Below, in pieces: positions 1 through 58,272 of a DNA stretch of 64,000 nt (positions are counted from its first letter, which is position 1; each line of letters starts with the position of its first letter). Both the position numbers and the translations under genes were made by a program. Below the pieces are notes generated by a model. That model did no database searches. It worked only from the letters and a program-made list of their open reading frames with translations, and had not been told where the DNA came from. The DNA is from Gemmatimonadota bacterium (GTDB lineage: Bacteria; Gemmatimonadota; Gemmatimonadetes; Gemmatimonadales; GWC2-71-9), in contig JBEPVA010000001.1 of NCBI GenBank assembly GCA_041691295.1, positions 6,008-70,007 on the forward strand, written 5' to 3'.

Positions 1-264
1 GGAGTATCGTTTCCCTTTGCCGCGACCAAACCGCCATTCACCAGCGTGACCACCGGCCAGGACGGCACCGTCTGGCTGCAGCGGGCCCGCGCCATCGAGG
101 ATTCAGTGCCGGTCTACGACGTGGTGGGGCGGCCAGGCCAGGCGGTCAGGACCTTCCAGCTGCCCAAGGGCACCAGCCTGGCGGGCGTCGGCCGTCACGG
201 CGGGATCTACGTCCTGATCCGGGAGGGGGATTTCCAGAAGGTGGGGAGGTACCAACTCAAGTAG
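1..264 (+). CDS. hypothetical protein, C-terminal fragment (5' end outside window)
   Basis: Frame 1 is open from base 1 to TAG 262-264; the ORF-track 46..264 is its tail. Third codon positions are GC-rich. No motif recognised. Confidence 0.45.
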   Translation, partial: GVSFPFAATKPPFTSVTTGQDGTVWLQRARAIEDSVPVYDVVGRPGQAVRTFQLPKGTSLAGVGRHGGIYVLIREGDFQKVGRYQLK

Positions 265-310
265 ACGGACGGTGGGATCGACGGACCGTTTGACCGACGG
301 GCCGACGGAA
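264..310 (+). repeat. short tandem repeat, 8-nt unit GACGGNCC, starting at the stop codon
   Basis: GACGG recurs at 264, 280, 296 and 304 (8/16-nt spacing). A related CGACGGACC copy lies at 401-432, behind the convergent gene's stop (441-443). Confidence 0.55.
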
Positions 311-440
311 GGATCCTCGATCGAGCGCGCCGTTCGGCGGAAATTCTACTGAATGAATGCCCAAGGGGTCTTTGCTCGAGCACAAATCTCCGCCGAGATC
401 CTAGCGACGGACCAACGTTCCGACGGTCCGACTCATATTG

Positions 441-1187
441 TCAGTCCAGCATCGGACTCGACGCATCGCTGTTCCGGGTCGGCCGCTCGCCGTCGGGGTC
501 CTCGGCATTGCCTTTGAGATCGGTCTTCCGCCGATTTCTGCGGCGCCCCTCCTCGTACCACCGACGGGTGATTTCACCGGCCAGCTCGCGGTTCCCCAGT
601 CCAAAGGCCAGGCTCACGCCGAGTGCGATGGCGCCGAGGATCAGGGTAAAGGCCGCGGTGACGATTTCCTCGGCGACGCCCACCTGCTGCAGCGCCATGA
701 ACACCGCGATCATCACCACCATACCCTTGGCGATCTTGGCCAGCGTCGGCACCCCGCTGACTCCGCCGGCTGACGCCAGGATCAATCCCCGCACGAACTC
801 CCCGACCACGATGCCCAGGATCACGATCACGATGCCGGCGATCAGCGTCGGGATGAAACCGAGCATTCGGCCGAAGACCTGATTGATGTTCTCCAGTCCG
901 AGGGCCGTGCTGGCCAGCAGAATCACGACCAGCATCATCAGCCAGAACACCAGCTTGCCCACCGCGTTAACCGGATCGAGATGCGCCCGTTCGGCGGCCT
1001 CGGTCAGTCCGCCGGCATCGGCCATTTTCTTGAACTGGGTCCGCAGCAGCGCCCGATCGACCCAGCGCTCGAGCTGACGGGCCAGCCAGTAGCCGCTCAG
1101 CAGGATGACCAGGGAGGCGATCATGGCAGGGAGCACGTCGCTCAGTTCGCTGGCGCCGAGCGACAGCCGATCCAGGATTTCATTCAC
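441..1187 (-). CDS. membrane protein with 'conserved TM helix' repeats (MscS-related family)
   Basis: 248-aa ORF with several G/A/I/V-rich hydrophobic helices and a charged R/K/D/E tail. Its start at 1187 overlaps the stop of the upstream ADH gene, so they share an operon. Confidence 0.6.
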   Translation of the reverse strand: MNEILDRLSLGASELSDVLPAMIASLVILLSGYWLARQLERWVDRALLRTQFKKMADAGGLTEAAERAHLDPVNAVGKLVFWLMMLVVILLASTALGLENINQVFGRMLGFIPTLIAGIVIVILGIVVGEFVRGLILASAGGVSGVPTLAKIAKGMVVMIAVFMALQQVGVAEEIVTAAFTLILGAIALGVSLAFGLGNRELAGEITRRWYEEGRRRNRRKTDLKGNAEDPDGERPTRNSDASSPMLD

Positions 1188-2220
1188 GGGTCACCTCGAT
1201 GATGATCTTGCCAGTCTGCGCCGCGGCACTGAGCCGGGCCACTGCAGCGGATGCCTCGGCCAGCGGGTGTATTGAATCGATGACGGGCCGCAGCAGCCCC
1301 TGCCCCGCTAGCTCAACGATGCGCCGGAACTCGCCGTCACTGCCCATGGTCGAGCCCATGATGTTCCACTGATACCAGAACAGCTTGCGGACGTCGGTCA
1401 CGCACATCGGGCCGGTGGTGGCACCACAGGTGACCAGCCGGCCCAGCCGGGCCAGGCAGCGGAGCGACTGCTCCCAGGTCTTTTCGCCGACGTTGTCGAG
1501 GACCACCTCGACGCCCCGCCGGTCCGTCACCTTCCGCACCTCGGCGGGGATGTTCTGCTCGACATGGTTGAGGCAGAGATCGGCGCCGAGCTTCTGGGCC
1601 TGGGCCAGCTTATCGGCGGAGGAACTGGTGGCAAAGACGCGGGCGCCCATCAGCTTGGCGATCTGGATGGCCGCCAGTGACACTCCACCGCCGACTCCCC
1701 AGATCAGGACCGTTTCGCCGGGCTTCAATTGGGCCCGGGTCACCAGCATCCGCCACGCTGTCAGCGTCGCGAGCGAAAAACCCGCCGCTTCGGCCCAGGA
1801 CCATCCCTCCGGCACGACCGCGAGATTGCGCTCCGGCACAGCGACATATTCCGCGATGGTGCCGCTGCAATGCTCCCCGAGCATCCGGAAGGTGGTGCAG
1901 AGCGACTGTTCGCCGTGTCGGCACCACTCACAGCTGCCGCACCAGAGACCGGGGTTGATCATGACCCGGGCGCCAGGGCCAAAGCGGGTGACCTCAGGAC
2001 CGGCCGCCTCGACGATGCCGGCGCCGTCAGCACCCATGATGTGCGGCAGCTCGAGACGGACGCTGGGCAATCCGCCGGCCACGAACAGATCGAGACGATT
2101 GAGAGCCGCCGCCTGGATCCGGATCAGGACCTGATCCGCCGCCGTCAGTCGGGGCGGCTCGACTTCCTGGACCCGCAGGTGCTCCGGTCCCCCCAGCGAG
2201 GTGAGGGTGAGCGCCCTCAC
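1180..2220 (-). CDS. zinc-type alcohol dehydrogenase / quinone oxidoreductase (MDR superfamily)
   Basis: 346 aa. Motifs PHIMGADGAGIVEAAG, Cys cluster CGSCEWCRHGEQSLC and Rossmann VLIWGVGGGVSLAAIQIAK. 4-nt overlap with the upstream gene. Confidence 0.85.
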   Translation of the reverse strand: MRALTLTSLGGPEHLRVQEVEPPRLTAADQVLIRIQAAALNRLDLFVAGGLPSVRLELPHIMGADGAGIVEAAGPEVTRFGPGARVMINPGLWCGSCEWCRHGEQSLCTTFRMLGEHCSGTIAEYVAVPERNLAVVPEGWSWAEAAGFSLATLTAWRMLVTRAQLKPGETVLIWGVGGGVSLAAIQIAKLMGARVFATSSSADKLAQAQKLGADLCLNHVEQNIPAEVRKVTDRRGVEVVLDNVGEKTWEQSLRCLARLGRLVTCGATTGPMCVTDVRKLFWYQWNIMGSTMGSDGEFRRIVELAGQGLLRPVIDSIHPLAEASAAVARLSAAAQTGKIIIEVTRE

Positions 2221-4388
2221 AGCGAGGGACTGGCCAGGTTTTCAGCGGGTTGGCCGGGCAGCGCCGCGAACGGCGCACCGGCGGCGGGGCGGAGATACAG
2301 CGTACCGTTCGGCCTGGTGCGATCACCGACCTGGGTAGTGACGTAGACCAGCTTGCCCCCATCAGGCGCGATCGAGAAGAAGGTGATCGGCTTTTCGCTG
2401 GCGACCACGACCGCGACGCTGTCGCTGCCCGCCGGACGCGTCACGATCTGATACCGGTTGGCGCCGGATTTACGCTCGACCAGATAAGCCACCGATCCGT
2501 CGTGCAGGAAACGCGGCGCGCCTTCCCGCCGGTCGCGGGCCAGCGGCGCGGTGGGCTCACTGGTCTCGGCCATGGCGCGGGTGACCACACCGCTGGTCCC
2601 TTCACGGAATACCACATACGCCAGCTCGGCGCCGTCAGCCGAAATCGCGGGCTCCTGGGTGGCAGCGGTGCCGCCGGTGAGTGCGTGGACGTCGGTGCCC
2701 TGTGTGGTCATGCTGTAGATCTGGCTGTGCCCCGCACGCGACGAGGTGAACACGATCCGCTTGCCATCCGGGGTCCAGACCGGAGTATTGTCGAGACCAG
2801 GTTCGCTGGTCAGCCGCTGCGAATTCAAGCCGTCCGCGTCGGCCACCCAGATATCGAAGTTGCCGGCGCCGCCCTTGTCCGAGCTGTACACGATGCGGGT
2901 CCGATCGGGCGAGTAGGACGCCTGCACGTTGGTCGCACCATCGGCCACGATCGGCACCCACTCACTGGACCGGTCCTGGGCCACGGCGTAGATGCCATAG
3001 CCACCGTGGCGGGACGAAGAGACCAGCAGGTCACCGGTGATATAGATCGTGCTGCTGGCGGACTTTCCTCCGGGCCCCGTGACGGTGACGATCGCGCTGC
3101 CCAGGCCCTGGGCGTGCAGGGTGCCGGTCGAGTCGGCCGTGACCACACTGGTGTCGGAGCTGCGCCAGGCCGGCCGGGGCACCGCACCGAGGCGGGTACC
3201 CTGGTCATCCATCAGCGTCGCGACGAGATGGGTGGTGCTGTCAAATCCAAGCGCCACCCGGGACCGGTCGAGGGCCACGGCGCCAGCCACGACCTCGACA
3301 TTCCAGATGGTGTGTTTGTATCCCGGCGTCGAGGCCTCGAGGGTGGTGCGGCCGATGCCACGGGCGCTGAGCTTTCCGGTGAGGGAGTCAAAGGCCGCTA
3401 CGCTCGAGTCGCCGATGCGCCACGAAAACTGGACTCCGGTGATCGGCGTCGAATCGGCCGCTTCGGCCCGGATCCCGAACTGCCGGGCGGTGCCCAGCGG
3501 AATTCGAATGGCGTCATTGGCCGGCGGACTCAGCACAAACCGGGCAATCTGAGGGCGGACGGTGACAGTTAGCCGGACATCCTGGAGAAAACCCGAGGCC
3601 GAGATCGTGGCCTGACCGGAGCCGACGGCGCGGATCAGGCCGGCCGCCTCGATTGTCACGATGGTGGAATCAGAGGTGTGCCAGACGAGGGTCGAGGCCG
3701 GCAGGCGGCGATTACCCTGGGCGGGAACCAGCACGGCCAGCGAATCGCCGTCGCCGACATTGAGAATCACGCTGGTCTGTTCAAAGGCGAGCGGGGTCAG
3801 CGCCACCGCGACTGGGACCCCGACCACCGGCCCGCTGCTGGCAAAGACTTCTATGGTGCCCTGACCCGCGCCAACGCCGAGGATCGTTCCCAGAGTATCC
3901 GACAGCACCGCTACCTCCGGCTTGGTCGATTTCCAGGTTAGATGCATCGTGGTGACTGGCAGTCCATCCGTCCGGACGCCAGTGACGGTCAGATGACCGA
4001 TTTCAGTGGGCAGGAGCGTGAGGCTGGCCGGCTGAACCGACAAGTCCTTGAGCATCGGCTCAGGAGTTCCCGCCACCAGCACGTCGATGGTCTTGGATTT
4101 CTTGCCGGCCTGGATCACGACCTTGGTGCGGCCCGGCGCCAGCCCGGTGATCGTGCCGCTCGATTCCACCCGGGCAATTCGCTGGTCCCGGACCAGGTAC
4201 TTGATGTCGAGGACCGCATCGCCCTTTTCGTCGTAGGCCTGCACACTCAGTCCGGCCCGCTGTCCCACCTTGAGCAGCACCGAGTCCTGCTGCACGAACA
4301 GCTCGCTGGCGGCCTGAGCCGAAAGGGGCGCCAGCGGCAGGCCGCTGAGCAGCAGCAATGTCAGGAGGGTGCGGACCCGGACCATCAT
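2217..4388 (-). CDS. secreted Ig-like (Big_2-type) repeat protein fused to a PD40/TolB-like beta-propeller
   Basis: Signal peptide MMVRVRTLLTLLLLSGLPLAPLSAQA if the start is 4388 (the ORF opens at 4448). Several Ig-like repeats. C-terminal PD40 repeats (SYSPDRTRIVYSS, PVWTPDGKRIVFTS, PAISADGAELAYV). Confidence 0.8.
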   Translation of the reverse strand: MMVRVRTLLTLLLLSGLPLAPLSAQAASELFVQQDSVLLKVGQRAGLSVQAYDEKGDAVLDIKYLVRDQRIARVESSGTITGLAPGRTKVVIQAGKKSKTIDVLVAGTPEPMLKDLSVQPASLTLLPTEIGHLTVTGVRTDGLPVTTMHLTWKSTKPEVAVLSDTLGTILGVGAGQGTIEVFASSGPVVGVPVAVALTPLAFEQTSVILNVGDGDSLAVLVPAQGNRRLPASTLVWHTSDSTIVTIEAAGLIRAVGSGQATISASGFLQDVRLTVTVRPQIARFVLSPPANDAIRIPLGTARQFGIRAEAADSTPITGVQFSWRIGDSSVAAFDSLTGKLSARGIGRTTLEASTPGYKHTIWNVEVVAGAVALDRSRVALGFDSTTHLVATLMDDQGTRLGAVPRPAWRSSDTSVVTADSTGTLHAQGLGSAIVTVTGPGGKSASSTIYITGDLLVSSSRHGGYGIYAVAQDRSSEWVPIVADGATNVQASYSPDRTRIVYSSDKGGAGNFDIWVADADGLNSQRLTSEPGLDNTPVWTPDGKRIVFTSSRAGHSQIYSMTTQGTDVHALTGGTAATQEPAISADGAELAYVVFREGTSGVVTRAMAETSEPTAPLARDRREGAPRFLHDGSVAYLVERKSGANRYQIVTRPAGSDSVAVVVASEKPITFFSIAPDGGKLVYVTTQVGDRTRPNGTLYLRPAAGAPFAALPGQPAENLASPSL

Positions 4389-6554: not shown

Positions 6555-6772
6555 ACTGACGAGGGGCGAAGAGCATGACTTAGTACTGTAAGTTATTATA
6601 TATCAGTCATTTAACAAGATTGACTGAATTCAGGGCAGTGGAGTGACCCGGGTTCTGGCAGCGACCTGTGCCGTCGGGGACTATCCGCCACTCTCTCTTG
6701 CAGAACCACCGAAGCGGTGCATCTTATTCAGCAGTTCAATCGCCGACCCGAATTCCCCCGGAGGAGATCACG

Positions 6773-7198
6773 ATGGCCGAGCTGAGCATGATGGAGATGG
6801 GCTGGTCTGGTTCCGGTTGGATGGATCCCGCCCCGATGCCGCTTGATCCGGAGCCTGTCACCCCGGCGCCGACAATGCCGCCCCGACCGGCGCCGACCAT
6901 GAGCTCGCCACCGGCGGCGGCCGCCCCGAAGAAGCCAGCGGCCAAGAAGGCAGCCGCGAAGAAGCCGGCGAAGAAGAAGCCAGCGGCCAAGAAGGCGGCG
7001 GCCGCGAAGAAACCGGCGAAGAAGAAGCCGGCCAGGAAAGCCGCCAAGAAGAAGATCGTGAAGAAGGTGGCCAGGAAGCCGGCCAGGAAAGCCGCCAAGA
7101 AGGTCAAGAAGCCGGCCAAGAAGGCCGCCCGCAAGGCGGCGAAAAAGGCCGCCAGGAAGAGCGGCAAGAAAAAGGGCGGCAAGAAGAAGAAGCGGTAG
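6773..7198 (+). CDS. histone H1-like / AlgP-like lysine-alanine-proline repeat protein
   Basis: ATG 6773 is preceded by GGAGGAG (6760-6766). The C-terminal ~110 aa are almost only A/K/P in AAKKPA/KKAARK repeats. The ORF-track start at 6668 lacks an RBS. Confidence 0.75.
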   Translation: MAELSMMEMGWSGSGWMDPAPMPLDPEPVTPAPTMPPRPAPTMSSPPAAAAPKKPAAKKAAAKKPAKKKPAAKKAAAAKKPAKKKPARKAAKKKIVKKVARKPARKAAKKVKKPAKKAARKAAKKAARKSGKKKGGKKKKR

Positions 7199-7210: not shown

Positions 7211-7245
7211 AGGCGCCCCGGTCGCGGACCGGGGCGCCTTCGTTT
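7211..7245 (+). terminator. hairpin terminator after the histone-like gene
   Basis: Perfect 13-bp stem aggcgccccggtc/gaccggggcgcct (7211-7239) with a 3-nt loop, followed by tcgtttat. Confidence 0.6.
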
Positions 7246-10776: not shown

Positions 10777-10810
10777 CGCTTACGGCTTAAGGCTTACGGC
10801 TTATGGCTTC
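10777..10810 (+). repeat. heptamer tandem repeat GCTTANG x ~4.5
   Basis: gcttacg gcttaag gcttacg gcttatg gcttcac. The tract runs into the selD ATG (10803). Confidence 0.7.
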
Positions 10811-11860: not shown

Positions 11861-11925
11861 GCAAAGAGCGATCGGAGAGAGGATCCCGAGCTGCTAGGCT
11901 TTTCCCTCTCCCCTCGCCCTGCTCC
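11861..11925. repeat. purine tract / pyrimidine tract pair between convergent genes
   Basis: gcaaagagcgatcggagagagga ... cttttccctctcccctcgccctgctcc. GGAGAGAGG and CCCTCTCCC are imperfectly complementary. Confidence 0.45.
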
Positions 11926-12145: not shown

Positions 12146-12250
12146 AGGAGTTGGAGTTTGGAATTGGGGATTCCCATTTCCCATTTCCCATTTCTCCGCT
12201 CTCCCCTCTCTGTTCTCTGTTCTCCTTTCGCCTTTCGCCTTTCGCCTTTC
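12146..12250. repeat. composite heptamer tandem-repeat tract
   Basis: ggagttggagtttggaattgggga, then TCCCATT x3, GTTCTCT x2 and CCTTTCG x4. The tract abuts the minus-strand stop at 12249-12251. On the gene's sense strand it reads GAAAGGC x4 and onward. Confidence 0.75.
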
Positions 12251-13226
12251 AGTCCAGTGACACTTCCCGGCCCACTCCCAACCGCTCTGCCTCCGCCACC
12301 ACGAACCGGGCAGCCGCCACGTCTTCGATGCCGAGTCCGAGGGACTTGAAGAGCGTGATCTCATCGGGGCGGGTCCGGCCCGGATGTTTCCGGGTCAGCA
12401 CCGCTCCCAATTCGGCGGAGATCTTGCCCGGCGCAATGCTGCGCTCGGCCATGGGAATGAGGAGATCACCCGCTTCGTTCAAGGCCGATTCCTTCGAATC
12501 GACGAACAGCGTGGCGGCGCGCACCAGGGCACTGTCGAGTTCCCGAGAGGTGGGTATGGAGGAACCGACGGCGTTGATGTGAGCCCCCGCGGCGATCCAG
12601 GCTCCCTCGACCACCGGGTCACGTGCGGCGGTCGTCGTACAGATGATGGAGGCATCGCGCACGGCGTCACGCGCCGTGTCCATCACCTCGATGGTGATGC
12701 CCCGGCTGGCCGCTTCCGCCGCGAATCGTTCGGCCCGTTCGCGAGTCCGGTTCCAGACCCGGATCCGGCGCAATGATCTCACCGAGTTGATGGCCTGCAG
12801 GTGGGTCCGGGCCTCGAGTCCCGCGCCGATCAGGGCCAGATCGTCGGCATCCTCCCGGGCCAGCCAGTCGGTAGCCACACCCGAGACCGCCGCGGTCCGG
12901 ATGGCGGTGACCGACCCGGCCTCAAGAACCGCGCTGAGCCTGCCGGAAGTTGGATCGACCAGGAGCACGGCGCCCTGATGACTGTCGAGTCCCCGTTGCG
13001 CGTTGCCGGGAAAGATGCTGACGATCTTCACGCCGAGCGACGTTGGGGTCCCGACGCAGGCGGGCATCGTGGCCATGAGACCGGAGCCATCGGGCAATCG
13101 CAGGATATTCCGCAGCGGCTGCTCGGCATTGCCCCGATCTCGCTCTTCGAGTGCTTCGGCCATCAGGCGGATGCAGTCGGTCATGGTGAGCAGTCGTTCG
13201 ACGTCCGACCGATTCAACACCCGCAT
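12249..13226 (-). CDS. ornithine cyclodeaminase / mu-crystallin family protein
   Basis: 325 aa. Rossmann LALIGAGLEARTHL and other family-typical blocks (VWNRTRERAERFA). Confidence 0.85.
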   Translation of the reverse strand: MRVLNRSDVERLLTMTDCIRLMAEALEERDRGNAEQPLRNILRLPDGSGLMATMPACVGTPTSLGVKIVSIFPGNAQRGLDSHQGAVLLVDPTSGRLSAVLEAGSVTAIRTAAVSGVATDWLAREDADDLALIGAGLEARTHLQAINSVRSLRRIRVWNRTRERAERFAAEAASRGITIEVMDTARDAVRDASIICTTTAARDPVVEGAWIAAGAHINAVGSSIPTSRELDSALVRAATLFVDSKESALNEAGDLLIPMAERSIAPGKISAELGAVLTRKHPGRTRPDEITLFKSLGLGIEDVAAARFVVAEAERLGVGREVSLD

Positions 13227-15084: not shown

Positions 15085-15603
15085 TCAGAGCGCGATAGCC
15101 GCCCGCTCTGCCGCACTGCTGTCGGGCCGGTCAACCGGGCGCGACTTGGATATCACGCTGATGGCCCCATTGTTTTCCAGCACCGCCACATGCACCTCGT
15201 CGATGCAGGTGCAGCCGCCCTGGCGCAGGGCCGCCTGGATTTCATGATGACTCAGGTTGGCGTTGGTCACCACTTCCTGGATCAGCTTGCCGTTGTGAAT
15301 CAGCACCTGCGGCCGCCCCTCGATCAGCGATTCCAGCTTCTTGCTGCGGAACGTCGCGTAGCCCACCGCGAAGTTGAGCGCCACCAGCGTCGCCGCCACC
15401 AGCAGCCCGCCGATCAGTGAATTATCCCCGCCATTCATCGAGTTCTGGACCGCGTTGGACAGGACCAGCAGCAGCACCAGGTCGAACGGCGCCAACTGGC
15501 CGACCTGCCGCTTGCCGGTGATCCGGAGCAGGACGAGCAGGAAGACGTAAACCACCAGTGCCCGGACGATCAGTTCCCACCAGGGGACGGCTAGCGAAAA
15601 CAT
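15085..15603 (-). CDS. DUF421 (YetF-like) membrane protein
   Basis: 172 aa. N-terminal TM helices and the LLRITGKRQVGQLAPFD block typical of the family. Confidence 0.8.
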   Translation of the reverse strand: MFSLAVPWWELIVRALVVYVFLLVLLRITGKRQVGQLAPFDLVLLLVLSNAVQNSMNGGDNSLIGGLLVAATLVALNFAVGYATFRSKKLESLIEGRPQVLIHNGKLIQEVVTNANLSHHEIQAALRQGGCTCIDEVHVAVLENNGAISVISKSRPVDRPDSSAAERAAIAL

Positions 15604-15620: not shown

Positions 15621-15661
15621 AAGGGCGGGAAAAGCGAAAAGAGAAAAGCGAAAGGGAGAGA
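15621..15661 (+). repeat. purine-rich heptamer arm (GAAAAGC family), left arm of 4HB cassette A
   Basis: gggaaaa gcgaaaa gagaaaa gcgaaag ggagaga. Positions 15634-15656 are complementary to 16112-16134. Confidence 0.8.
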
Positions 15662-15745
15662 CTCTGAGATCTATCGCGTCATTCCGACCAGCTCTCGCGT
15701 AATTGCGGTTACCCGAACGAGGTTGTCCGGTCGCATACTGTCCAC

Positions 15746-16102
15746 ATGAAGGACCACCGATCACTCAAGGCCTGGCAGGAAGCCCACCTCGTCGTAGTGG
15801 GCATTCTCAGGATCGCACGAGAATCATGGAGACCATGGGCGAGCGCAGTGTTCAGCCAGGTCCAGCGCGCCTCGTTGTCGGTGCAACTCAACATTGCCGA
15901 AGGCTGGACCTTTGGTGAATCGCCGACATCCACGCGCCACCTGAGTGTTGCCTATGGTTCAGTGGTCGAGACCCTTGACCTGCTGGATCTGATGATCGAG
16001 GCGCAGATTGCTCCGGAGGCCGAGCTTGCAACGCTGAAGAGCAATGCAGCACAATCTCAGCGCCCGCTACTCGGACTTCTCAAGCGGCGTCGACCGCTAT
16101 GA
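15746..16102 (+). CDS. four-helix-bundle protein (23S rRNA intervening-sequence protein / Avd-like family)
   Basis: 118 aa. Family pattern LKAWQEAH..., QVQRASLSVQLNIAEG, GSVVETLDLLDL. Confidence 0.85.
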   Translation: MKDHRSLKAWQEAHLVVVGILRIARESWRPWASAVFSQVQRASLSVQLNIAEGWTFGESPTSTRHLSVAYGSVVETLDLLDLMIEAQIAPEAELATLKSNAAQSQRPLLGLLKRRRPL

Positions 16103-16105
16103 GGT

Positions 16106-16143
16106 GCTTTTCCTTTTCGCATTTCTCTTTTCACTTTTCGCGC
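16106..16143 (+). repeat. pyrimidine-rich heptamer arm, right arm of 4HB cassette A
   Basis: gcttttc cttttcg catttct cttttca cttttcg. It starts 4 nt after the TGA. Confidence 0.8.
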
Positions 16144-16145: not shown

Positions 16146-17615
16146 TCAAGGCTTCAGGCTTTTCCCCGCCCTCATCCGGGCCTCGATATCGCTGATTTCC
16201 CGCGGCGCCTGTGACACCCGCTCCACTCCCGTTGGCGTCACGAAGTAATCGTCCTCGATCCGCACCCCGGTGTTCTTGTAGCGGGCCACTGCCACCCCGA
16301 TCTTGGCGATCATCTGCCGGTTCTTCGGCGTATCCGGCAGCCCTTCGAGGGCCGAGGCGCGGACGTAGAGACCGGGTTCGATGGTAAAGGCATCGCCGAG
16401 CTGGAAGGTGCGGGCCTCGAGGTCGCTGAACTGGGCCGGGTCGTGCACGTCGAGACCGAGCCCGTGACTGTAGCCGTGATATGAATACAGGTACCACTGG
16501 GGGCAGGCCTCACCTTCCTTGCGGTACGGCGGCCGGGTCGGACACAGTCCTTCCGGCGCGTCGAAGGTGGCATCGGCGCTCTCGATCAGCCCCAGCTTCA
16601 CCAGCCCGCGCACGATCACCATCCGGGCCGAATCGTAGGCTGCACTGCTCGTCGTACCCGGTTTGATCATCCGTTCCTCGGCCTTCTGGGCATCGAGTAC
16701 GACCTGGTAGACCGCCCGCTGGTCGGCACTGAAGACCCCGTTGACCGGAATAGTGCGGGTGATGTCAGCCGCATATCCGTCGTAGCTGCTGGCCACGTCC
16801 ATCAGGACCACTTCACCGTTCTGCATGATCCGTCGCCCGGCGTCGTAGTGCAGCGAGGTCGAGTTGGGACCCGACCCCACGATCGAGGAATAGGCCGGTC
16901 GGTCTCCGCCCAGGCGGCGAAAGGCGTATTCCGCCGAGGCCTGCACCTCGTACTCCGCCTTGCCAGCCCCGATCATCCGCAGCGCGGCCACGTGGCCCGA
17001 ATCGCTGATCTCGATGGCCTTCCGGAGCAGGGCCAGTTCGGCCGGACTGCGCTTGGCCCGCAACCGGTCGACCAGCGGCGTGCCGCGACGGACATCCAGG
17101 TTCGGGTGCGCCGCCTTGAGCCCGTTGACGATCAGCGAGCCGTAGGAGGCGGTGTCCCGGCGGGCAAACTCGTTGGCCACCGCATCGCTGATCACGTACA
17201 GGGGCAGCCCGCTGCCCGCCAGCGAATCGAGCAGCGGGGCCAGCCCGGCGCTGTACCGAACGTCCAGACCGGTCTCCTGTGCCAGCGCCACCGGATCGGT
17301 AGTCCTGCCACTGTACAGCGCCCCGCGCAGGTCGGTTGGCGGCACAAACAGCACCGCTTGCGAACTGCCGCCACGCTTGACCATGACCAGTGCGGCATCG
17401 GGATCGAGGTAGCCGGTCAGGTATCGGAATCCGGCGAGCTGCACAAAGGCGGGATAGTGAGCCAGCGGCTCCCGGGCCCCGGCGGAGAAGACGATGCCGC
17501 TGTCGACCTGCGCCAGCACCGCAGTGCGACGGGCGGCATAATCGGCCTGCGGAATCTGGGCCTGAAGAGCGGTAGCGGCCACCGCCGCCGCGCCGGCCAG
17601 GAGAGCGAGTCTCAT
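16146..17615 (-). CDS. Xaa-Pro aminopeptidase (M24B family), secreted
   Basis: Pita-bread metal-ligand blocks DVASSYDGYAADITRT, HGYSHGLGLDVHD and GVRIEDD. ATG 17615 forms an ATGA overlap with the upstream stop and gives the signal peptide MRLALLAGAAAVAATALQAQ. Confidence 0.85.
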   Translation of the reverse strand: MRLALLAGAAAVAATALQAQIPQADYAARRTAVLAQVDSGIVFSAGAREPLAHYPAFVQLAGFRYLTGYLDPDAALVMVKRGGSSQAVLFVPPTDLRGALYSGRTTDPVALAQETGLDVRYSAGLAPLLDSLAGSGLPLYVISDAVANEFARRDTASYGSLIVNGLKAAHPNLDVRRGTPLVDRLRAKRSPAELALLRKAIEISDSGHVAALRMIGAGKAEYEVQASAEYAFRRLGGDRPAYSSIVGSGPNSTSLHYDAGRRIMQNGEVVLMDVASSYDGYAADITRTIPVNGVFSADQRAVYQVVLDAQKAEERMIKPGTTSSAAYDSARMVIVRGLVKLGLIESADATFDAPEGLCPTRPPYRKEGEACPQWYLYSYHGYSHGLGLDVHDPAQFSDLEARTFQLGDAFTIEPGLYVRASALEGLPDTPKNRQMIAKIGVAVARYKNTGVRIEDDYFVTPTGVERVSQAPREISDIEARMRAGKSLKP

Positions 17616-24628: not shown

Positions 24629-24629
24629 G

Positions 24630-25610: not shown

Positions 25611-25622
25611 GACTCGCACCCC

Positions 25623-31180: not shown

Positions 31181-31193
31181 TCGGATAGAAAAC

Positions 31194-32894: not shown

Positions 32895-32993
32895 ACTCTC
32901 GCCGGGGGGGGCTCGCGTGTCCACTGATCCCGCCTGTTCAGAATACCGGAGCCACTTCTCTATGTCCTGCACACGACCGAAATGCGGTCACGC

Positions 32994-38704: not shown

Positions 38705-39094
38705 ATGGCAACCACCACCGACCAGAACAAGCAGAACGTCTGGGCCTTCTACGACCTGGCCTTCAACCAGCAGCAGCCCGAGCAGGCGGTCCAGCGCTAC
38801 CTCGGCGCCAGCTACAAGCAGCACAACCCGATGGCCGCCGATGGACCCGAGCCGTTCATCGGCTTCGTCCGCTGGATCACCGGTGAGAATCCCAAGCTGC
38901 GATTCGAGAAAAAGCGGATCATCGCCGAAGGGGATCTGGTCACGGTGCACTCACACCTGGTCCCGGCCCCCGGCGCCCGCGGCACCGCGGTCATGGACAT
39001 CTTCCGGCTGGACGGGGACGGCAAGATCGTGGAGCACTGGGATGTGCTGCAGGAGGTGCCCGAGACGGCCAAGAACGGCAATACGATGTTCTAG
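38705..39094 (+). CDS. SnoaL-like / NTF2-fold protein
   Basis: 129 aa. Pattern ends ..DIFRLDGDGKIVEHWDVLQ. Confidence 0.75.
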   Translation: MATTTDQNKQNVWAFYDLAFNQQQPEQAVQRYLGASYKQHNPMAADGPEPFIGFVRWITGENPKLRFEKKRIIAEGDLVTVHSHLVPAPGARGTAVMDIFRLDGDGKIVEHWDVLQEVPETAKNGNTMF

Positions 39095-39127
39095 GAGCGC
39101 CCGTTAGCGGCAGTTAATCGTGCAGGG

Positions 39128-44074: not shown

Positions 44075-44823
44075 AGATCCTTCGCGATCCCCTGATCACC
44101 CTGCTTGCCCGCCCCCAGTTCATCGAACCGGAGCATCTGCCGGTCCAGTGGAGGGGGGAATCGACCGACGGCGAGCGGCTGGCCGAGTTCGCCGGCCGGC
44201 TCTGCTACATGAGCCAGCACAATCCGGCGGAGCGGACCACCGCGGAGTACCTCGGCAATATCCTCAAGCAGGGGCATGGCTCGGTCTTCGAGCATTCGGT
44301 CTACGTGCTGCTGATCGAGGGGATTTCGAGGTCCTGCAGCCACGAACTGGTCCGCCACCGGGCCGGATTCGGCTATTCGCAGCTCTCCCAGCGGTACGTG
44401 GACGAGTCTGATGCCGCCTTCGTGATGCCGCCGGCCATTCAGGGGGAGGGCACCATGGAAGACGAGTGGCAGCGGCAGGTCGAGTCAGCCCAGGCGGCCT
44501 ATATCCAGGGCGTCGACCGGTTGATGACCAAGTACGAGTGGGTCGAGAGCAAGGTCCATCGCCGGAAGATGGCGCGGGAAGCGGCCAGGAGCGTGCTGCC
44601 CAATGCCACCGAGGTGAAGATCGTGGTCAGCGCCAATGTCCGGGCCTGGCGCACCATGCTCGAACTCCGGCTTGGCGAGGGTGCGGAGCTCGAGATCAGG
44701 CGGATGGCGGTCGCCTGCCTGCGGATGCTGCAGAAGGAGGCGCCTGCCCTGTTTGCCGACTTCGAGATCTACCGGGCGGCGGACGGGACGGAGTGCGGGA
44801 GAGTCGGGTATCACAAAGTCTAG
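44071..44823 (+). CDS. thyX: FAD-dependent thymidylate synthase
   Basis: ThyX signature ELVRHRAGFGYSQLSQRY. ATGA overlap with the upstream gene. Confidence 0.9.
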   Translation: MKILRDPLITLLARPQFIEPEHLPVQWRGESTDGERLAEFAGRLCYMSQHNPAERTTAEYLGNILKQGHGSVFEHSVYVLLIEGISRSCSHELVRHRAGFGYSQLSQRYVDESDAAFVMPPAIQGEGTMEDEWQRQVESAQAAYIQGVDRLMTKYEWVESKVHRRKMAREAARSVLPNATEVKIVVSANVRAWRTMLELRLGEGAELEIRRMAVACLRMLQKEAPALFADFEIYRAADGTECGRVGYHKV

Positions 44824-44880
44824 AGTCGAGGGTCGAGGAGCCTGTCCCGAGCGCAGCGAGGGATCGAGGGTCGAGCGAAA
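44821..44880 (+). repeat. heptamer-periodic tract (GTCGAGG family) beginning at the thyX stop codon
   Basis: tagagtc gagggtc gaggagc ctgtccc gagcgca gcgaggg atcgagg gtcgagc. The first 18 nt are the exact reverse complement of 58020-58037. Confidence 0.75.
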
Positions 44881-45285
44881 AATCGGCGGATTGACTGAGA
44901 AATCACCGCATCGGGGGGCTTCGGAGGTCGAGGTCTCCCGTTTTTTGCATCATTGAGCCTCATCTTGCCGATTTTTCGGAGTTGGAAGCCGTCTTTCAGG
45001 GTGATTCAGGCATTTCGAAGGGTCCGAATCCTACTTTCCCCGATGAAATGATCGATCGCACGACGAAATTTCTTCGAGTTGGAGCCCTGCTTTTCGCTTC
45101 GGACCATCGATTGATCGCCTTTTGAGCGTGAAATGGTCGCAAACTCAACAAAATCAACAACAAAACTATTGTGCGATCAGACACTATTTCTTAAGTTAGT
45201 AGTGCAACAGCTAATGAAGCTCGCGTTCGAGCGCTAACACGCTGATAACTTCGGAACGCGGCGGCCATCCTCAACGAGGGATCGA

Positions 45286-52923: not shown

Positions 52924-52978
52924 GGCGGGCGGGCGGGCGGGCGGGCGGGCGGGCGGGCGGGCGGGCGGGCGGGCGGGC
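52924..52978. repeat. (GGGC)n tetranucleotide tract, ~13 units; distal arm of 4HB cassette B
   Basis: ggcgggcgggc... spans 55 nt and starts 8 nt after the SusD stop. It is complementary to 53521-53535, allowing one G:U pair. Confidence 0.85.
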
Positions 52979-53005: not shown

Positions 53006-53437
53006 TCAAGTCATCGATTGGGCAGGTGGAGTCTTCGACTCCCCGGCCCTTTTGGCTACAGCGGCGTAAAGGCCCCAAGTTAGCCGAGTCGCATGATCCC
53101 TGAGCGCCTCAATCTCACCGTATTTCTCGGCACTTGTGTATTCCAAGTCTCTAGAGAGCAAGAGAAGGTAGGAAAGTTCGGACAATGAGCCGAGCGAAAT
53201 ATCCAAGTATCGACGAAACTCTCGGCTCCCGCGTTTGGCGCAACCCTCGGCGATATTGACCACGGCCGAGACTGCGGCACGGCGAGCCTGGGAAGTCAGT
53301 CCGTAGACCTCGAATTTCGGCCACGACTCGGTCGCGCGGTACGTCGCCAGCGCAAGGTCGTGGCAAGCGACCCAGGCAGTGAATCGCTCGTATGGCTTGC
53401 CAGGGCGTTTCTTAGAAGACTTGATCGTATTGAGCAT
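53006..53437 (-). CDS. four-helix-bundle protein (23S rRNA IVS protein / Avd-like family), second copy
   Basis: The start is taken at the internal ATG 53437. Family pattern FTAWVACHDLALATY, SQARRAAVSAVVNIAEG, GSLSELSYLLLLS. Confidence 0.8.
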   Translation of the reverse strand: MLNTIKSSKKRPGKPYERFTAWVACHDLALATYRATESWPKFEVYGLTSQARRAAVSAVVNIAEGCAKRGSREFRRYLDISLGSLSELSYLLLLSRDLEYTSAEKYGEIEALRDHATRLTWGLYAAVAKRAGESKTPPAQSMT

Positions 53438-53518
53438 ACGATACAGTAGGACCGCCGATGACACTCCGCATAACCGAAACTTTGCGCTGATACCCAAAAC
53501 AACGCCGTAGTCGTCTTT

Positions 53519-53544
53519 CTGCCCGCCTGCCCGCCTGCCCCCCC
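53519..53544. repeat. GCCCGCCT repeat; proximal arm of 4HB cassette B
   Basis: ctgcccgcctgcccgcctgccccccc. On the gene's sense strand this is a purine arm ~80 nt upstream of the ATG. Confidence 0.8.
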
Positions 53545-53568
53545 AAGGTATCCGTTCTCGCCGAATGC

Positions 53569-54579
53569 CTAGGTGGCCGCTAGCCACCCCATCCCTCCCG
53601 CCTCCGCCATCCTCGACTGGTGCGGCTGGAACATGTAACGCCCCCGCACCGGCAGCCGGAACTCGAGAATCGCCCGCTCACTCGGACCCAGCGTCACGGT
53701 GTCGGTCCGCTCATCGGGAACGAGCCGAGTGCCGCTGCGGTACAGATCAAACGCCTGGGCGTGCAGATGAAACGACACGGATGGATCGGAGGCGCTGAGG
53801 TTGACCAGGTAGATCCGCACCAGCTCACCGACGGGCACCTTGATCGGATAGCGGGCAAAGAACCCGGCCACCCCATTCCAGGCGTACAGATCGTTTTGAC
53901 CGTCCCCGTCCAAGTCGAAACCGGAGAGTGCCAGCACCAGCTCATGGGCCGCTGGCCGCCCGCCCGGCGGATCGACGATCATGGTGCCGTACAGCCCGTG
54001 CGCCATATGCTCGGACACCGGCAGCGCGTGACAATGATACGGATGCACCCCGAACGGCTCGGCCGTAAACCGATACGTCGTCTCACCGCCGACCGGCACC
54101 GGTTCCCAGCCATCCTGGTTCACATCATGGGTGCCGTGGAAATGAACGTTGTGCGGGTGACTGCCCTTGTTGGTGAAGTGGACCGCCAGCTGATCCCCTT
54201 CGGTGGCCCGGAGAATCGGACCCGGCACCGTCCCGTTGTAGCTCCAGGCCTGGAAGGTCCGGCCTCGGGCCACTTCGATGGGCATTTCGACCGCAGTCAG
54301 TTCGAACTGCCTGGCCCTTCCCCGGGCCCCCGGTTCGAATGGCGGCGGGATGGTCAGCCCATCGAGCGCTTGCGGCCCCAATGACTCGGGTGGCTCGACC
54401 CCATGAGAATAGAGCGAATCGCCGGGCATCATCGCATGAGGATTCGGGCCCATCGGAGTGACCATCTGGTGCCCGCCATTTCCCGCCCGTCCGGCGAGAT
54501 ACCCGCCCAGCGCTCCCGCACCGCCAATCACGCCGAGTCGCAGCAGCTCCCGGCGCGTGATCCCGAAGGAATCGTTCAC
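53569..54579 (-). CDS. Tat-exported multicopper oxidase domain protein
   Basis: GTG 54579 makes a GTGA overlap with the upstream stop. Tat leader RRELLRLGVIGGAG. Copper motifs HPHNVHFHG and HCHALPVSEHMAHGLYG. Confidence 0.8.
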   Translation of the reverse strand: MNDSFGITRRELLRLGVIGGAGALGGYLAGRAGNGGHQMVTPMGPNPHAMMPGDSLYSHGVEPPESLGPQALDGLTIPPPFEPGARGRARQFELTAVEMPIEVARGRTFQAWSYNGTVPGPILRATEGDQLAVHFTNKGSHPHNVHFHGTHDVNQDGWEPVPVGGETTYRFTAEPFGVHPYHCHALPVSEHMAHGLYGTMIVDPPGGRPAAHELVLALSGFDLDGDGQNDLYAWNGVAGFFARYPIKVPVGELVRIYLVNLSASDPSVSFHLHAQAFDLYRSGTRLVPDERTDTVTLGPSERAILEFRLPVRGRYMFQPHQSRMAEAGGMGWLAAT

Positions 54580-56420: not shown

Positions 56421-56470
56421 GATCATCCTTTCGAGTTCGATTCGATTTGCCGAAGATCAACGCGGTGGCA

Positions 56471-56500
56471 CGCAGTTAAATGCAGTTAAACACAGATAAA
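56471..56500 (-). promoter_or_regulatory. three tandem 10-bp repeats upstream of the cupredoxin/NosD-like operon
   Basis: cgcagttaaa tgcagttaaa cacagataaa, one helical turn apart, 45-75 nt upstream of the start codon. Confidence 0.3.
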
Positions 56501-56527
56501 CGCAGGAACAATTGGCGGCCTGCGTTT
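56498..56527 (-). terminator. hairpin terminator candidate after the amidohydrolase gene
   Basis: Stem aaacgcagg/cctgcgttt (9 bp) with a 12-nt loop. T-rich sequence follows on both strands. Confidence 0.5.
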
Positions 56528-56582
56528 TGTCGGGATTGCTTTCTCCGGAACCATGCTATTGATCCGCCCCCAGCTGGAGGGA

Positions 56583-56665
56583 GCCTTTTCGCTTTTCGCT
56601 TTTCGCTTTTCGCTTTTCGTTGTTCGCCCTCTCACCTCTTACCTCTTACCTCTCACCTTTTACGA
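56583..56665 (-). repeat. composite heptamer tract (GTGAGAG family then GAAAAGC family on the sense strand), overlapping a stop codon
   Basis: The plus strand reads CTTTTCG x4-5, then ccctctc acctctt acctctt acctctc. Positions 56626-56656 are 29/31 identical (as reverse complement) to 25522-25552. Confidence 0.8.
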
Positions 56666-57965
56666 TCACCCCACCCTTCATCACAAACCCCATCCCCATC
56701 ATCCGGTGCAGATCGGCCAGCGCGTCGCCATCGACCGCAATGATGTCAGCAAACTTGCCGGCTGTGATCGAGCCGACCCGGTCATCCCACCTCATCAGAC
56801 GCGCGGCGTCGAGAGTGGCGGACTGGATAGCCTGCATCGGCGTCATGCCGTACTTCACCATGTAGGGCAGCTGCGCCGCGTTGAGCCCGTGGGGATACAC
56901 TCCGCTGTCGGTTCCGTAGGCGATGTGAATGCCCAGCGCCACGGCCTTGCGGAATGCGACACGCTGGGTCTCGGTGGTTTCCCGGTTCTTGCGCAGGATC
57001 TCGGCCGGCCAGTGATCGCGGGTGCCGACCGAATCGATGTAGTCGCCGTTGTAGATATCGGCCACCAGCCAGGTGCCGTGCTCCTTCATCAGGGCCAGCG
57101 CTTCGTCATCGGCCAGTGAGCCGTGTTCGATCGAGCGGACTCCGGCCCGGACCGCCCGCTTGATACCCTCCGGGCCGTGGGCATGGGCCGCCACGAAGGT
57201 TCCGTAGTTGGCCGCTTCATCTACCGCGGCCTTGATCTCTTCTTCGGTGAACTCCGGCGCTCCGGGCTGAGTTCCGGCGGCAAGCACTGCCCCGGTCGCG
57301 ATGACCTTGATGAAATCGGCGCCGCCATTGAGCAGCTCCCTGACCCGCTGCCGCACCTCCGGCACCGAGTTGGCCACCCCTCGTCGCATATCGGCGGGAA
57401 GAATGACATCGGGCGCGAGGCCGGTCACCTCGCCCCCGCCGCTAGAGACCGTGATGTAGGCCCCGGCCACCTTCATCCGTGGTCCGATGACCGTACCGTC
57501 GTTGATCGCATCACGGAGCGCAACGTCGACAAAGGCTCGATAGGTGCCGACATCCCGAACAGTGGTAAACCCGGCCAGCAGTGTGGACCTGGCATGCTGG
57601 ACGCCGAGAAAGGCGTACTGGGCTTCGGAATAGAGCAGCGGGTCGGCCACATTGGAGGTCTCGACGACGTCAGCCAGATGGGTGTGGCAGTCGATCAGCC
57701 CGGGCAAGACCGTGGAGTTGGACAGGTCGATGACCTTGGCGCCCTTCGGAATCGGCGCTGAGCCCGGCTGGACCGATTCGATCCGTTCGCCGCGGATCAG
57801 GATGACCTGGTTCTGAATGACGGTGCCGTGCTCGACATCGACCAGTCGGCCGGCTCTGATCGCGATCAGCGGCTGGGGCGTGGTCTGGGCACCGGCAACT
57901 ACAACAGACAACGCGGAGGCGCTGAGGACGCAGAGGGCGCGGAGGGCAGATTTGATGCGGTTCAT
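56646..57965 (-). CDS. secreted amidohydrolase family protein
   Basis: Signal peptide. Motifs LIDCHTHL, AAHAHG, AYGTDSG, and the amidohydrolase fold. Confidence 0.85.
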   Translation of the reverse strand: MNRIKSALRALCVLSASALSVVVAGAQTTPQPLIAIRAGRLVDVEHGTVIQNQVILIRGERIESVQPGSAPIPKGAKVIDLSNSTVLPGLIDCHTHLADVVETSNVADPLLYSEAQYAFLGVQHARSTLLAGFTTVRDVGTYRAFVDVALRDAINDGTVIGPRMKVAGAYITVSSGGGEVTGLAPDVILPADMRRGVANSVPEVRQRVRELLNGGADFIKVIATGAVLAAGTQPGAPEFTEEEIKAAVDEAANYGTFVAAHAHGPEGIKRAVRAGVRSIEHGSLADDEALALMKEHGTWLVADIYNGDYIDSVGTRDHWPAEILRKNRETTETQRVAFRKAVALGIHIAYGTDSGVYPHGLNAAQLPYMVKYGMTPMQAIQSATLDAARLMRWDDRVGSITAGKFADIIAVDGDALADLHRMMGMGFVMKGGVIVKGER

Positions 57966-58004
57966 GGGCAGATCGGCTTCCCGTGGCTATTCAATAGTCA
58001 GTGA

Positions 58005-58046
58005 CCCTCGACCCTCGACCCTCGACCCTCGACTCTAGACTCTACA
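58005..58046 (-). repeat. heptamer tandem repeat CCCTCGA x4 + CTCTAGA + CTCTACA (GTCGAGG family on the sense strand)
   Basis: Overlaps the TAG stop (58042-58044) of the DUF3565-like gene. Confidence 0.85.
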
Positions 58047-58230
58047 CTCCGCCACAGAGCCGACATTCCAGCTCCATCCCAATCTTGCCGTCGCGCCCAT
58101 CCGGCGTGGTGACCCATTCCCGAACCTGCCACGGCGGATCGTGCCTCACGTGCTGGTTGTGGCCACACTCAAGCTCAGCCACCCACTGTTGCTCGGCATC
58201 GAGATGAAACCCGGTGATTTTCCGGCGCAT
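58042..58230 (-). CDS. DUF3565-like small protein
   Basis: 62 aa from the internal ATG 58230. WVAELECGHNQHVRHDPPWQVREWV...ELECRLCGG matches the family pattern. Confidence 0.6.
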   Translation of the reverse strand: MRRKITGFHLDAEQQWVAELECGHNQHVRHDPPWQVREWVTTPDGRDGKIGMELECRLCGGV

Positions 58231-58236
58231 AGCTAT

Positions 58237-58272
58237 TCGCCCGTCTCGCCCGTCTCGCCCGTCTCGCCTGTC
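58237..58272 (-). repeat. 9-nt tandem repeat TCGCCCGTC x4
   Basis: Fills nearly the whole 49-bp spacer between the upstream stop (58280) and the DUF3565-like start. Confidence 0.8.

Follow-up and report, generated by a model that had tools for sequence, protein, structure and literature searches.

S23p is a pentameric (toroidal) four-helix-bundle protein known from the intervening sequences (IVSs) of 23S rRNA. In Coxiella, the open reading frame (ORF) for S23p lies in the loop of an IVS closed by a 28-bp terminal stem, the 5′ arm of which carries two to three tandem GACAGAT heptamers, their number depending on the strain; RNase III cuts this stem at the start of the first heptamer (Warrier et al. 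2016, PMC4990558). Intergenic tandem heptamers are also described from Xanthomonas (units of GGGAATC) and from Nostoc (GGGGAYT), where they lie close to stop codons and obey a strand rule (Rehm et al. 2015, PMC4692102). Here we analyse tandem arrays of mostly 7-nt units at gene ends in a 64,000-nt stretch of a Gemmatimonadota bacterium from the order Gemmatimonadales (GenBank assembly GCA_041691295.1, contig JBEPVA010000001.1, positions 6,008 to 70,007 of the forward strand), referred to below as the window. We show that the arrays form the ends of a family of IVS-like cassettes, which have an S23p gene between their arms, that this layout recurs in three phyla, that its polarity is fixed, that ORF-less and solo relatives exist, and that the copy number of the repeat units changes fast.

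Xanthomonas genomes are high in GC. Each contains 70–75 convergent inverted heptamer pairs, the repeats are scarce between divergent ORFs, and most of them are transcribed; in Xanthomonas and Nostoc, species differ in repeat length but agree in whether a repeat is single or paired, about four units are typical, and a G-quadruplex role has been proposed for the GGGAATC and GGGGATT units (PMC4692102). An excess of heptameric simple sequence repeats (SSRs) in large high-GC genomes, together with the idea that polymerase slippage produces them, is credited in the same paper to Mrazek (2007). The window shares with these long simple sequence repeats (LSSRs) the head-to-tail 7-nt units, the intergenic excess, the proximity to stop codons, the purine-rich sense strand, the convergent inverted pairs, the scarcity in divergent spacers, the variation in copy number and the preference for about four units. 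It follows every positional rule of the Xanthomonas case and departs only in the G-quadruplex unit; Xanthomonas and Nostoc each have one dominant unit per genome, whereas the window has at least six families, mostly without G-tracts. An earlier note on this DNA, made from the letters alone, had taken the arrays for a genome-specific class with no known prior description in a high-GC genome or at stop codons. That view does not hold, as the same positional rules were published for Xanthomonas and Nostoc and repeats of both kinds are described by Rehm et al. (2015, PMC4692102). Gemmatimonadota is a new phylum for repeats of this type, and the stop-anchored heptamers as such are a phylum-level new instance of a published repeat class. 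Rehm et al. (2015) do not mention a four-helix-bundle gene, whereas we find one nested in one Xanthomonas pair. What is new here is this S23p connection and a purine-first palindrome rule, which tie dispersed heptamers to rRNA IVS elements.

The short tandemly repeated repetitive (STRR) sequences of heterocystous cyanobacteria have units such as CCCCAGT and the like. The window differs from them in its Gemmatimonadales host and in its units. TAACTGA heptamers occur in Beggiatoaceae, cyanobacteria and Bacteroidetes, and repeats containing stop triplets close all three frames and hence lie at ORF ends (MacGregor 2015, PMC4679880). Both STRR and TAACTGA repeats resemble the window arrays in that they are tandem heptamers dispersed over intergenic DNA and occur sporadically across the phylogeny; TAACTGA arrays, however, lie mostly just upstream of start codons, include one inverted set only (PMC4679880), and have units unlike those of the window. 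Repetitive extragenic palindromes (REP), bacterial interspersed mosaic elements (BIME) and miniature inverted-repeat transposable elements are likewise dispersed intergenic palindromes at gene 3′ ends, with ORF-less copies beside a protein-coding relative. In contrast to the conserved palindrome of REP/BIME, the window arms are tandem arrays of a variable unit, and neither a REP-associated tyrosine transposase or other transposase nor a target-site duplication was seen here.

S23p cassettes in three phyla

Two pairs of arrays in the window enclose S23p genes. Neither these genes nor the inverted pairing of many of the arrays had been recognised in the earlier note. Cassette 1, on the plus strand, opens with a purine arm of (GAAAAGC)n at 15621–15661 (15629–15653 by Tandem Repeats Finder, TRF) and continues with a spacer at 15662–15745 that has −35-like and −10-like boxes near the ATG. 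Its S23p gene, at 15746–16102, encodes a four-helix-bundle protein of 118 aa (PF05635, E = 5e-16; TIGR02436, 54.5 bits with a cutoff of 24), for which the best PDB match is 2GSC (XCC0516, Xanthomonas campestris). The pyrimidine arm, (GCTTTTC)n at 16106–16143 (TRF 16107–16139), lies 2 nt past the stop codon of the minus-strand gene 16146–17645. The inverted match of the purine arm to 16107–16139 scores 40–43, the null maximum being 18, and the joined arms fold at −50.7 kcal/mol.

Cassette 2 is read on the minus strand. Its G-rich arm (GGGCAGGC-type, period 8) at 53519–53544 (TRF 53519–53540) stands 25 nt past the stop codon of a minus-strand multicopper oxidase gene. A divergent S23p/four-helix-bundle gene follows at 53006–53437 (PF05635, E = 7.9e-28; TIGR02436, 92.7 bits; local match to the profile hidden Markov model at 53078–53398), with M51 of ORF 53006–53587 as the likely start. 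The C-rich arm at 52924–52978 appears on the plus strand as 13.8 copies of GGGC (TRF period 4, score 110), and also lies 8 nt past the stop codon of the plus-strand gene ending at 52916. The joined arms fold at −82 kcal/mol, and the geometry is that of cassette 1: a G-rich arm, about 81 nt, the ORF, about 27 nt and a C-rich arm. Both cassettes lie between protein-coding genes, outside 23S rRNA helices; tRNA and Rfam scans of the window gave no match and no rRNA.

An array-blind metagenome scan with the S23p protein gave 80 soil loci. Together with the window and other fetched cassettes, 77 cassettes, mostly on soil-metagenome contigs, were evaluable for arm pairing. Complementary arms were present in 73 of the 77, with a median of 39 and a maximum of 149 paired nt, and the upstream arm was purine-rich in 69/69. 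The period was 7 in 50/59 upstream and 59/66 downstream arrays (medians of 4.6 and 4.7 units). The unit itself varied by locus (GCGAAAA, AGACGGG, GTGAACG, GGTRAGC, AGGGAAC and others), the downstream array always being the reverse complement, and the arms adjoined the stop codons of neighbouring genes. The purine strands have a loose core, G-K-G-A-R, in common. In 75 aligned spacers TTGGT or TTGAT was followed by TAnnnT ending about 6–8 nt before the ATG, a pattern which suggests that Gemmatimonadota cassettes have a promoter of their own and a near-leaderless mRNA.

Among 80 loci centred on selD, an S23p gene was found only in L005 (one cassette) and L006 (two), which are also the loci richest in arrays (9 in 14 kb and 11 in 21 kb, respectively). 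The two cassettes of L006 share about 95% identity over the stretch that begins with the first array unit and ends with the last. The homology ends exactly at the outer array edges, and the arrays therefore bound a discrete duplicated unit. We also noticed in L006, at 12886–12915, and at the equivalent place in L005, a perfect hairpin followed by T5 (CGCGAGG...CCTCGCGTTTTT) between the purine arm and the S23p promoter. It resembles an intrinsic terminator that would serve the host gene upstream; a hairpin of this kind is not obvious in cassette 1 of the window.

The same layout, an array, an S23p gene and the reverse-complement array, was found in Gemmatimonadota, Xanthomonadales and Bacteroides. 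Homologues of XCC0516 in Xanthomonas, Rhodanobacter, Dyella and Lysobacter (L161–L170) all lie between accB and accC, flanked by a four-unit GGGAATC-type array about 4 nt past the accB stop codon and by a complementary array that runs up to the accC ATG. Rhodanobacter shows a change in both arms, with GGGATTC on one side and GAATCCC on the other. In Bacteroides, homologues of 2RLD, the second PDB relative, lie between (AATTGAC)4 and (ATTGTCA)4, and do so in the spacers of two different operons. The Coxiella study counts Xanthomonas among the bacteria with IVS-encoded S23p (PMC4990558). Unlike that listing, the Xanthomonas gene lies between accB and accC, outside rRNA, in the genomes we examined.

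The cassettes compare closely with the S23p IVSs of Coxiella and Leptospira: a PF05635 ORF sits in the loop of a long terminal-inverted-repeat stem, and the 5′ arm carries tandem purine-rich heptamers, whose number varies between strains in the IVS. The elements are alike in size (about 430 nt for the IVS, about 520–620 nt for the window cassettes) but differ in site, since IVSs are inserted in a 23S rRNA helix (9, 25 or 45) and cassettes in mRNA spacers directly after stop codons. Cassette arms are far longer arrays, of up to 17–19 units, and the Gemmatimonadota cassettes, unlike IVSs, have an apparent promoter and many ORF-less and solo copies. In the searchable library, the Coxiella IVS paper was the only one we found that connects heptamer repeats with PF05635, S23p or a 'four helix bundle protein', and none connected S23p with the dispersed repeats.

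Arrays at gene ends in the window and related loci

TRF recovered 16 of the 20 tracts listed in the earlier note at or near their positions. Three others did not qualify as regular arrays: 11861–11925 is a hairpin, and 26734–26760 and 44821–44880 are two-copy or interrupted repeats. The window contains 14 period-7 arrays of at least three copies, while 50 third-order Markov simulations of the window gave a mean of 0.46; their chance origin is excluded, and the claim that the tracts are a genuine family in which a period of 7 nt prevails is borne out. Genes were called with a codon-usage model trained on the window, in which stops are firm and starts approximate; it replaced a cruder GC3-based map that was wrong at several array loci.

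The placement of the arrays was analysed in a pooled set made up of the window and of the surroundings of selD in 45 Gemmatimonadales loci (801 kb in total, of which 8.7% is intergenic according to codon-usage gene calls). Period-7 arrays were intergenic in 49 of 64 cases, and arrays of periods 7–9 combined in 64 of 122 (binomial test, p = 3e-35); those of period 9 were mostly coding, as is to be expected of a period divisible by three. Array density per kb was 2.1 in convergent, 0.94 in tandem and 0.18 in divergent spacers. The median gap between array and stop codon was 4 nt in tandem spacers (stop-side arrays) and 9 nt in convergent ones, and in several cases the stop codon falls inside the array. 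The anchoring at stop codons that had been proposed for the window thus extends to the pooled set, as does the purine- or G-richness on the sense strand of the upstream gene: among arrays no more than 30 nt from a stop codon, 29/39 were purine-rich on that strand (p = 0.003). That arrays follow stop codons is true of most in the window, with two exceptions: the array at 10777 overlaps the selD ATG, and the one at 15621 precedes the start of gene 15085–15603, on the minus strand, by 18 nt.

The unit sequences had been described as differing between loci, yet several recur within the window. GAAAAGC is common to 15629, 16107 and 56585, GGTGAGA/GGTAAGA to 25522, 25573 and 56628, GGGAGTT to 12146, 24510 and 24601, and GAGGGTC to 44821 and 58003. 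In all, there are at least six unit families within the 64 kb, the majority without G-tracts. Shine-Dalgarno-like repeats and CsrA-type GGA sites were considered, but many units (GAAAAGC, GACGGACC, GGGC) have neither.

The arrays could instead be regulatory repeats that form G-quadruplexes, as proposed for Xanthomonas GGGAATC and Nostoc GGGGATT. Some window arrays do have at least four GGG tracts, namely those at 52924 (13.8 copies of GGGC), 58003 (4.4 copies of GAGGGTC), 58237 (four copies of GACGGGCGA) and 53519, and the median arm of about 4.6 units resembles the four-unit preference of Rehm et al. Such arrays nevertheless make up only about 4–5 of 18 in the window; the common units GAAAAGC and GGTGAGA/GGTAAGA have no G-tract, and neither do GCTTACG, GCCGTTA, Bacteroides AATTGAC or Coxiella GACAGAT. 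As most units are without G-tracts, a quadruplex cannot be the common denominator. We rejected it as the shared property, and regard it as a very unlikely explanation of the arrays.

Contigs assembled from short metagenome reads often end in or near arrays (L109 at 3126–3163, L115 at 1–26, and several other contigs among L081–L160). This might suggest that the arrays are assembly artefacts. The same architecture, however, appears in independent assemblies, which include Gemmatimonadales contigs of at least 1 Mb from metagenome-assembled genomes (MAGs) and a Xanthomonas record of 4.9 Mb; different genera have it at orthologous positions, and the array pairs are internally complementary. We consider an artefact to be practically out of the question. 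Arrays break assemblies and are probably under-counted in MAGs.

Arrays with unrelated units were also observed upstream of selD: at 10777–10810 in the window, L001 2353–2404, L005 8585–8745, L028 3198–3228, L045 9977–10003, L053 1003–1085 and L069 9949. These comprise several Gemmatimonadales loci and also two from Actinomycetota. An array lies just 3′ of selD in L058, L073 and L078, and of the few period-7 arrays that the Actinomycetota set contains, about half adjoin selD. This may reflect sampling bias, every locus being centred on selD, or a genuine hotspot.

Pairing, polarity and copy number of the arrays

Inverted pairs of arrays occur in the window at 15621/16106, 24509/24598, 25521/25571 and 52924/53519, and 77 such pairs were found across all loci. 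The ORF-less pairs at 24509 and 25521 form long predicted stems on either strand (z = −3.5 to −4.5). In the pair at 24509–24628 (+), the purine arm, (GGGAGTT)n at 24509–24544 (TRF 24510–24542), begins 1 nt past the stop codon at 24508, and the pyrimidine arm at 24598–24628 (TRF 24601–24627) ends 1–2 nt before the ATG at 24630; the fold is −51.7 kcal/mol on the plus and −51.5 kcal/mol on the minus strand (z about −3.9). The pair at 25521–25610 (+) has a purine arm of (GTGAGAG/GTAAGAA)n at 25521–25553 (TRF 25522–25550), with a stop codon inside it at 25530–25532, and a pyrimidine arm at 25571–25610 (TRF 25573–25604) before the next ATG at 25623. Its inverted score is 30 against a null of 16, and it folds at −38.3 kcal/mol (+) and −46.5 kcal/mol (−). 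Folding of the window pairs showed no consistent advantage of the sense over the antisense strand. We also note that the pyrimidine arms, at 24598–24630 and 25571–25623, reach to 1–12 nt before the predicted starts and leave these without a Shine-Dalgarno sequence; either the starts of these two genes are mispredicted or they initiate without one.

A pair in a tandem spacer extends from the stop codon, where its purine arm begins, to the next start codon or its vicinity, where its pyrimidine arm ends; a pair in a convergent spacer has one stop codon next to either arm. The order was purine, then pyrimidine, in 56/56 ORF-bearing cassette pairs and in 16/16 strand-skewed empty pairs across all loci. 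Two seeming exceptions proved to be neighbouring arms of two separate pairs. By symmetry, a purine-first palindrome reads the same on both strands, and the polarity therefore yields the sense-strand purine rule at either side. Of 181 skewed arrays, 91 close all three frames on the purine-rich strand, and 170 have no stop in any frame on the pyrimidine-rich strand. The array as a universal three-frame stop was rejected, as this holds for only half of the cases.

Unit number, which the earlier note had proposed to compare between relatives, does vary. The coding flanks of L005 and L006 are 96.9% identical, while their orthologous arrays have 3.4 versus 17.6 units, and 4.9/11.4 versus 10.9/3.1 units, and the two arms change copy number independently. 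In one orthologous empty pair, the loops of L005 and L006 are unrelated. For the window itself, no identical gene was found for a window protein by exact-protein look-up, leaving no same-species strains for a comparison of polymorphism.

These observations bear on the alternative that the arrays are plain heptanucleotide SSRs without function. Slippage would favour 7-nt units, which survive in the unconstrained DNA past stop codons; arm complementarity would arise by quasi-palindrome template switching, and the S23p genes would be passengers inserted into hairpin loops. The sharp differences in copy number between nearly identical flanks, the independent change of the arms and the scarcity of arrays in divergent spacers all agree with such an origin, and the slippage idea has already been published (Mrazek 2007, as cited by Rehm et al.). 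The composite element at 12146–12250 (−) points in the same direction. It follows the stop codon at 12249–12251 of an ornithine cyclodeaminase-family gene and reads on the minus strand as (GAAAGGC)n, (GAGAACA/GGAGAGC)n and (ATGGGAA)n (TRF 12171–12194, 12193–12225 and 12220–12250), then a short complementary arm at 12146–12170 that forms an inverted pair with 12171–12194, while the distal part folds weakly. Its adjoining blocks of related but different units (12171–12250) suggest that units mutated and were then amplified again. Nor was there any strand asymmetry among the mismatches of 73 cassette stems, with 128 of the G:U type versus 145 of the A:C type on the sense strand (p = 0.33); there is therefore no signal of selection on pairing of the sense RNA, and the counts agree just as well with pairing of DNA or of both strands. 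Plain slippage leaves unexplained, however, why the purine-then-pyrimidine polarity is fixed (72 to 0), why arrays are near-obligate around this S23p clade in three phyla, why four-unit arms are kept at the accB–accC gene across Xanthomonadales genera, and why a duplicated unit is bounded exactly by arrays. We therefore treat it as a possible but distinctly weaker account.

We favour, with a probability of roughly 0.55, the reading that the tracts are one family of IVS-type selfish stem-loop elements that occupy 3′ intergenic space instead of rRNA helices. Each member has a purine-rich array that lies at a stop codon or contains it, with tandem units that are mostly 7 nt long, share a loose GKGAR core and number about 4.6 in the median; in about half of the cases a complementary pyrimidine-rich array follows, and the two can fold into a long stem-loop. 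The full-length form carries the S23p gene between the arms; the window holds two cassettes, several ORF-less pairs and solo arrays, the last being read as decayed halves. The arrays may be generated, and the arms kept complementary, by slippage during replication and by template switching, both acting on DNA; a process at that level or on both strands fits because G:U and A:C mismatches show no asymmetry. Once transcribed, paired arms could form double-stranded RNA that RNase III would cut, by analogy with Coxiella, and such cutting would trim or separate transcripts at gene ends. Orientation may be filtered in two ways: the purine-rich strand often closes all three frames, and the purine-first order would never expose a C-rich, Rho-attracting arm before its partner, thus avoiding Rho.

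Several observations weigh against this family of IVS-type elements. Besides the lack of mismatch asymmetry, about nine solo arrays are unable to form stems, only 2 of about 20 window loci have an S23p gene, the unit consensus is only modestly above the null (log-likelihood −431 versus a null maximum of −435), and the loci are phylogenetically non-independent. The loops of empty pairs have no homology to the cassette interior, and on these grounds we rejected the idea that empty pairs are simple internal-deletion derivatives of the cassette. The ORF-less pairs and solo arrays are tied to the cassettes by architecture, polarity and, in some contigs, shared units; they may descend from cassettes or may share a mechanism with them. 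No target-site duplication was seen at the cassettes, and we know of no transposase-like function of S23p.

A further-reaching proposal, which we put forward tentatively and think unlikely to hold in full, is that S23p and its flanking heptamer arrays are an unrecognised, widespread class of mobile or self-propagating elements, in which the S23p pentamer recognises the arrays and promotes their formation or spread. S23p could, for example, recruit a polymerase for reiterative 3′-end synthesis on both sides of a break, which would give inverted arms of the same unit in purine-first order, and the ORF-less pairs and solo arrays would be non-autonomous progeny.

Solo arrays, terminators and other features of the window

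The remaining tracts of the window are mostly solo arrays. In the convergent spacer near its left end, a G-rich 8/16-nt array at 264–310 (+; TRF 264–304, period 16, 2.6 copies) begins at the stop codon of the plus-strand gene ending at 264, and an 8-nt array (CGACGGTC-like) at 401–432 (TRF 405–432, period 8, 3.5 copies) lies 8 nt from the stop codon of the minus-strand gene 441–1187. The two pair in the predicted fold, and the spacer 256–445 as a whole forms a long hairpin (−70.5 kcal/mol). The solo array at 10777–10810 (+; TRF 10778–10809), 4.6 copies of GCTTACG without strand skew, overlaps the selD start codon at 10803, while directly 3′ of the selD stop codon a purine arm and a pyrimidine arm form the hairpin at 11861–11925 (+; −26.9 kcal/mol, z = −2.2), which has no TRF row and hence is not a tandem array. 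The solo G-rich 8-nt array at 19366–19395 (+; TRF 19365–19391) starts 10 nt past the stop codon at 19355 and is intergenic, since the next gene belongs to a long ORF whose Iso_dh domain begins only after about 85 residues. A weak two-copy purine-rich repeat under the TRF threshold, at 26734–26760 (+), directly follows the stop codon at 26733. Near the right end of the analysed arrays, 4.4 copies of GAGGGTC at 58005–58046 (−; TRF 58003–58033 and 58031–58049), G-rich on the minus strand, stand 40 nt upstream of a start at 57965, and four copies of the 9-nt unit GACGGGCGA at 58237–58272 (−; TRF period 9) lie 8 nt past the stop codon at 58280.

Two further arrays are followed by canonical terminators. 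At 31155–31180 (+; TRF 31155–31177), 3.3 copies of GCCGTTA begin 10 nt past the stop codon at 31145 and are followed by a terminator at 31193–31223; at 44821–44880 (+), interrupted GAGGGTC repeats with no TRF row begin at the thyX stop codon and precede a terminator at 44912–44940. Since both arrays precede a hairpin with a T-tract, they probably lie in the 3′ untranslated region (UTR) upstream of the terminator. A pair of adjoining solo arrays at 56583–56665, purine-rich on the minus strand, consists of 4.4 copies of GGTGAGA/GGTAAGA (TRF 56628–56658) and 6.1 copies of GAAAAGC (TRF 56585–56627); the amidohydrolase TAA stop codon at 56646–56648 falls within the GGTGAGA/GGTAAGA array, and the region 56575–56670 is unstructured (z = +1.2). 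In the same spacer, closer to the start of the downstream gene, we observed a period-10 array at 56470–56505 (3.6 copies of ACGCAGTTAA) that was absent from the earlier listing.

It had been suggested that the arrays are 3′-UTR elements that act in RNA stability or processing, or in termination without a T-tract. Such a role would be played by way of an unusual RNA structure or a protein that binds them. Their position just past stop codons, the purine-rich sense strand, the two arrays that probably lie in mRNA 3′ UTRs between a stop codon and a canonical terminator, and the transcription of most Xanthomonas heptamer repeats (PMC4692102) agree with such a role. As for termination, the arrays at 31155 and 44821 cannot themselves be the terminators, as canonical ones follow them; no T-tract follows the array pairs, canonical terminators stand apart, downstream of two arrays, and the window terminator scan as a whole was not above its shuffles. 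Solo arrays, such as those at 56575–56670, lack structure, the units are too varied for one sequence-specific binder, the loose GKGAR core aside, and in inverted pairs the purine bias on the sense strand follows from palindrome polarity alone. A 3′-UTR function as the common explanation therefore seems improbable to us. The observation reported in the earlier note is thus confirmed and its interpretation partly supported.

The window has a GC content of about 64%. Its SelD has its nearest relatives in Gemmatimonadales MAGs, with a best identity of 77%, and SusC/SusD-type, TolB-peptidase and amidohydrolase genes typical of the phylum are present. A lower-GC island at 26000–40000 (0.56–0.63, compared with about 0.65 elsewhere) contains a single array, at 31155, together with a DUF6941 protein gene (26819–28144, −), a B12-binding/radical-SAM-like gene (29328–31145) and a gene for an RHS-repeat protein of 1577 aa (33674–38407, −); it was probably acquired horizontally. 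Elsewhere, the ORF at 6668–7198 (+) is packed with coding repeats of 15, 30 and 48 nt (AAGAAGCC-type), encodes a Lys/Ala-rich, histone-H1-like protein with no Pfam match, and is followed by a strong canonical terminator at 7211–7239.

For annotation, the arrays matter as markers of the 3′ ends of genes, as the occasional source of the stop codon itself, and as places where short-read assemblies break. More broadly, the analysis brings together two puzzles that are decades old, the excess of intergenic heptanucleotides in large bacterial genomes and the role of S23p, and the association of S23p with the arrays makes both of them experimentally approachable. Were S23p and its flanking arrays indeed a self-propagating class of elements, this would explain the heptanucleotide excess in many bacteria, including the GGGAATC repeats of Xanthomonas and perhaps the cyanobacterial STRR sequences, and the orphan IVS protein would gain a function.

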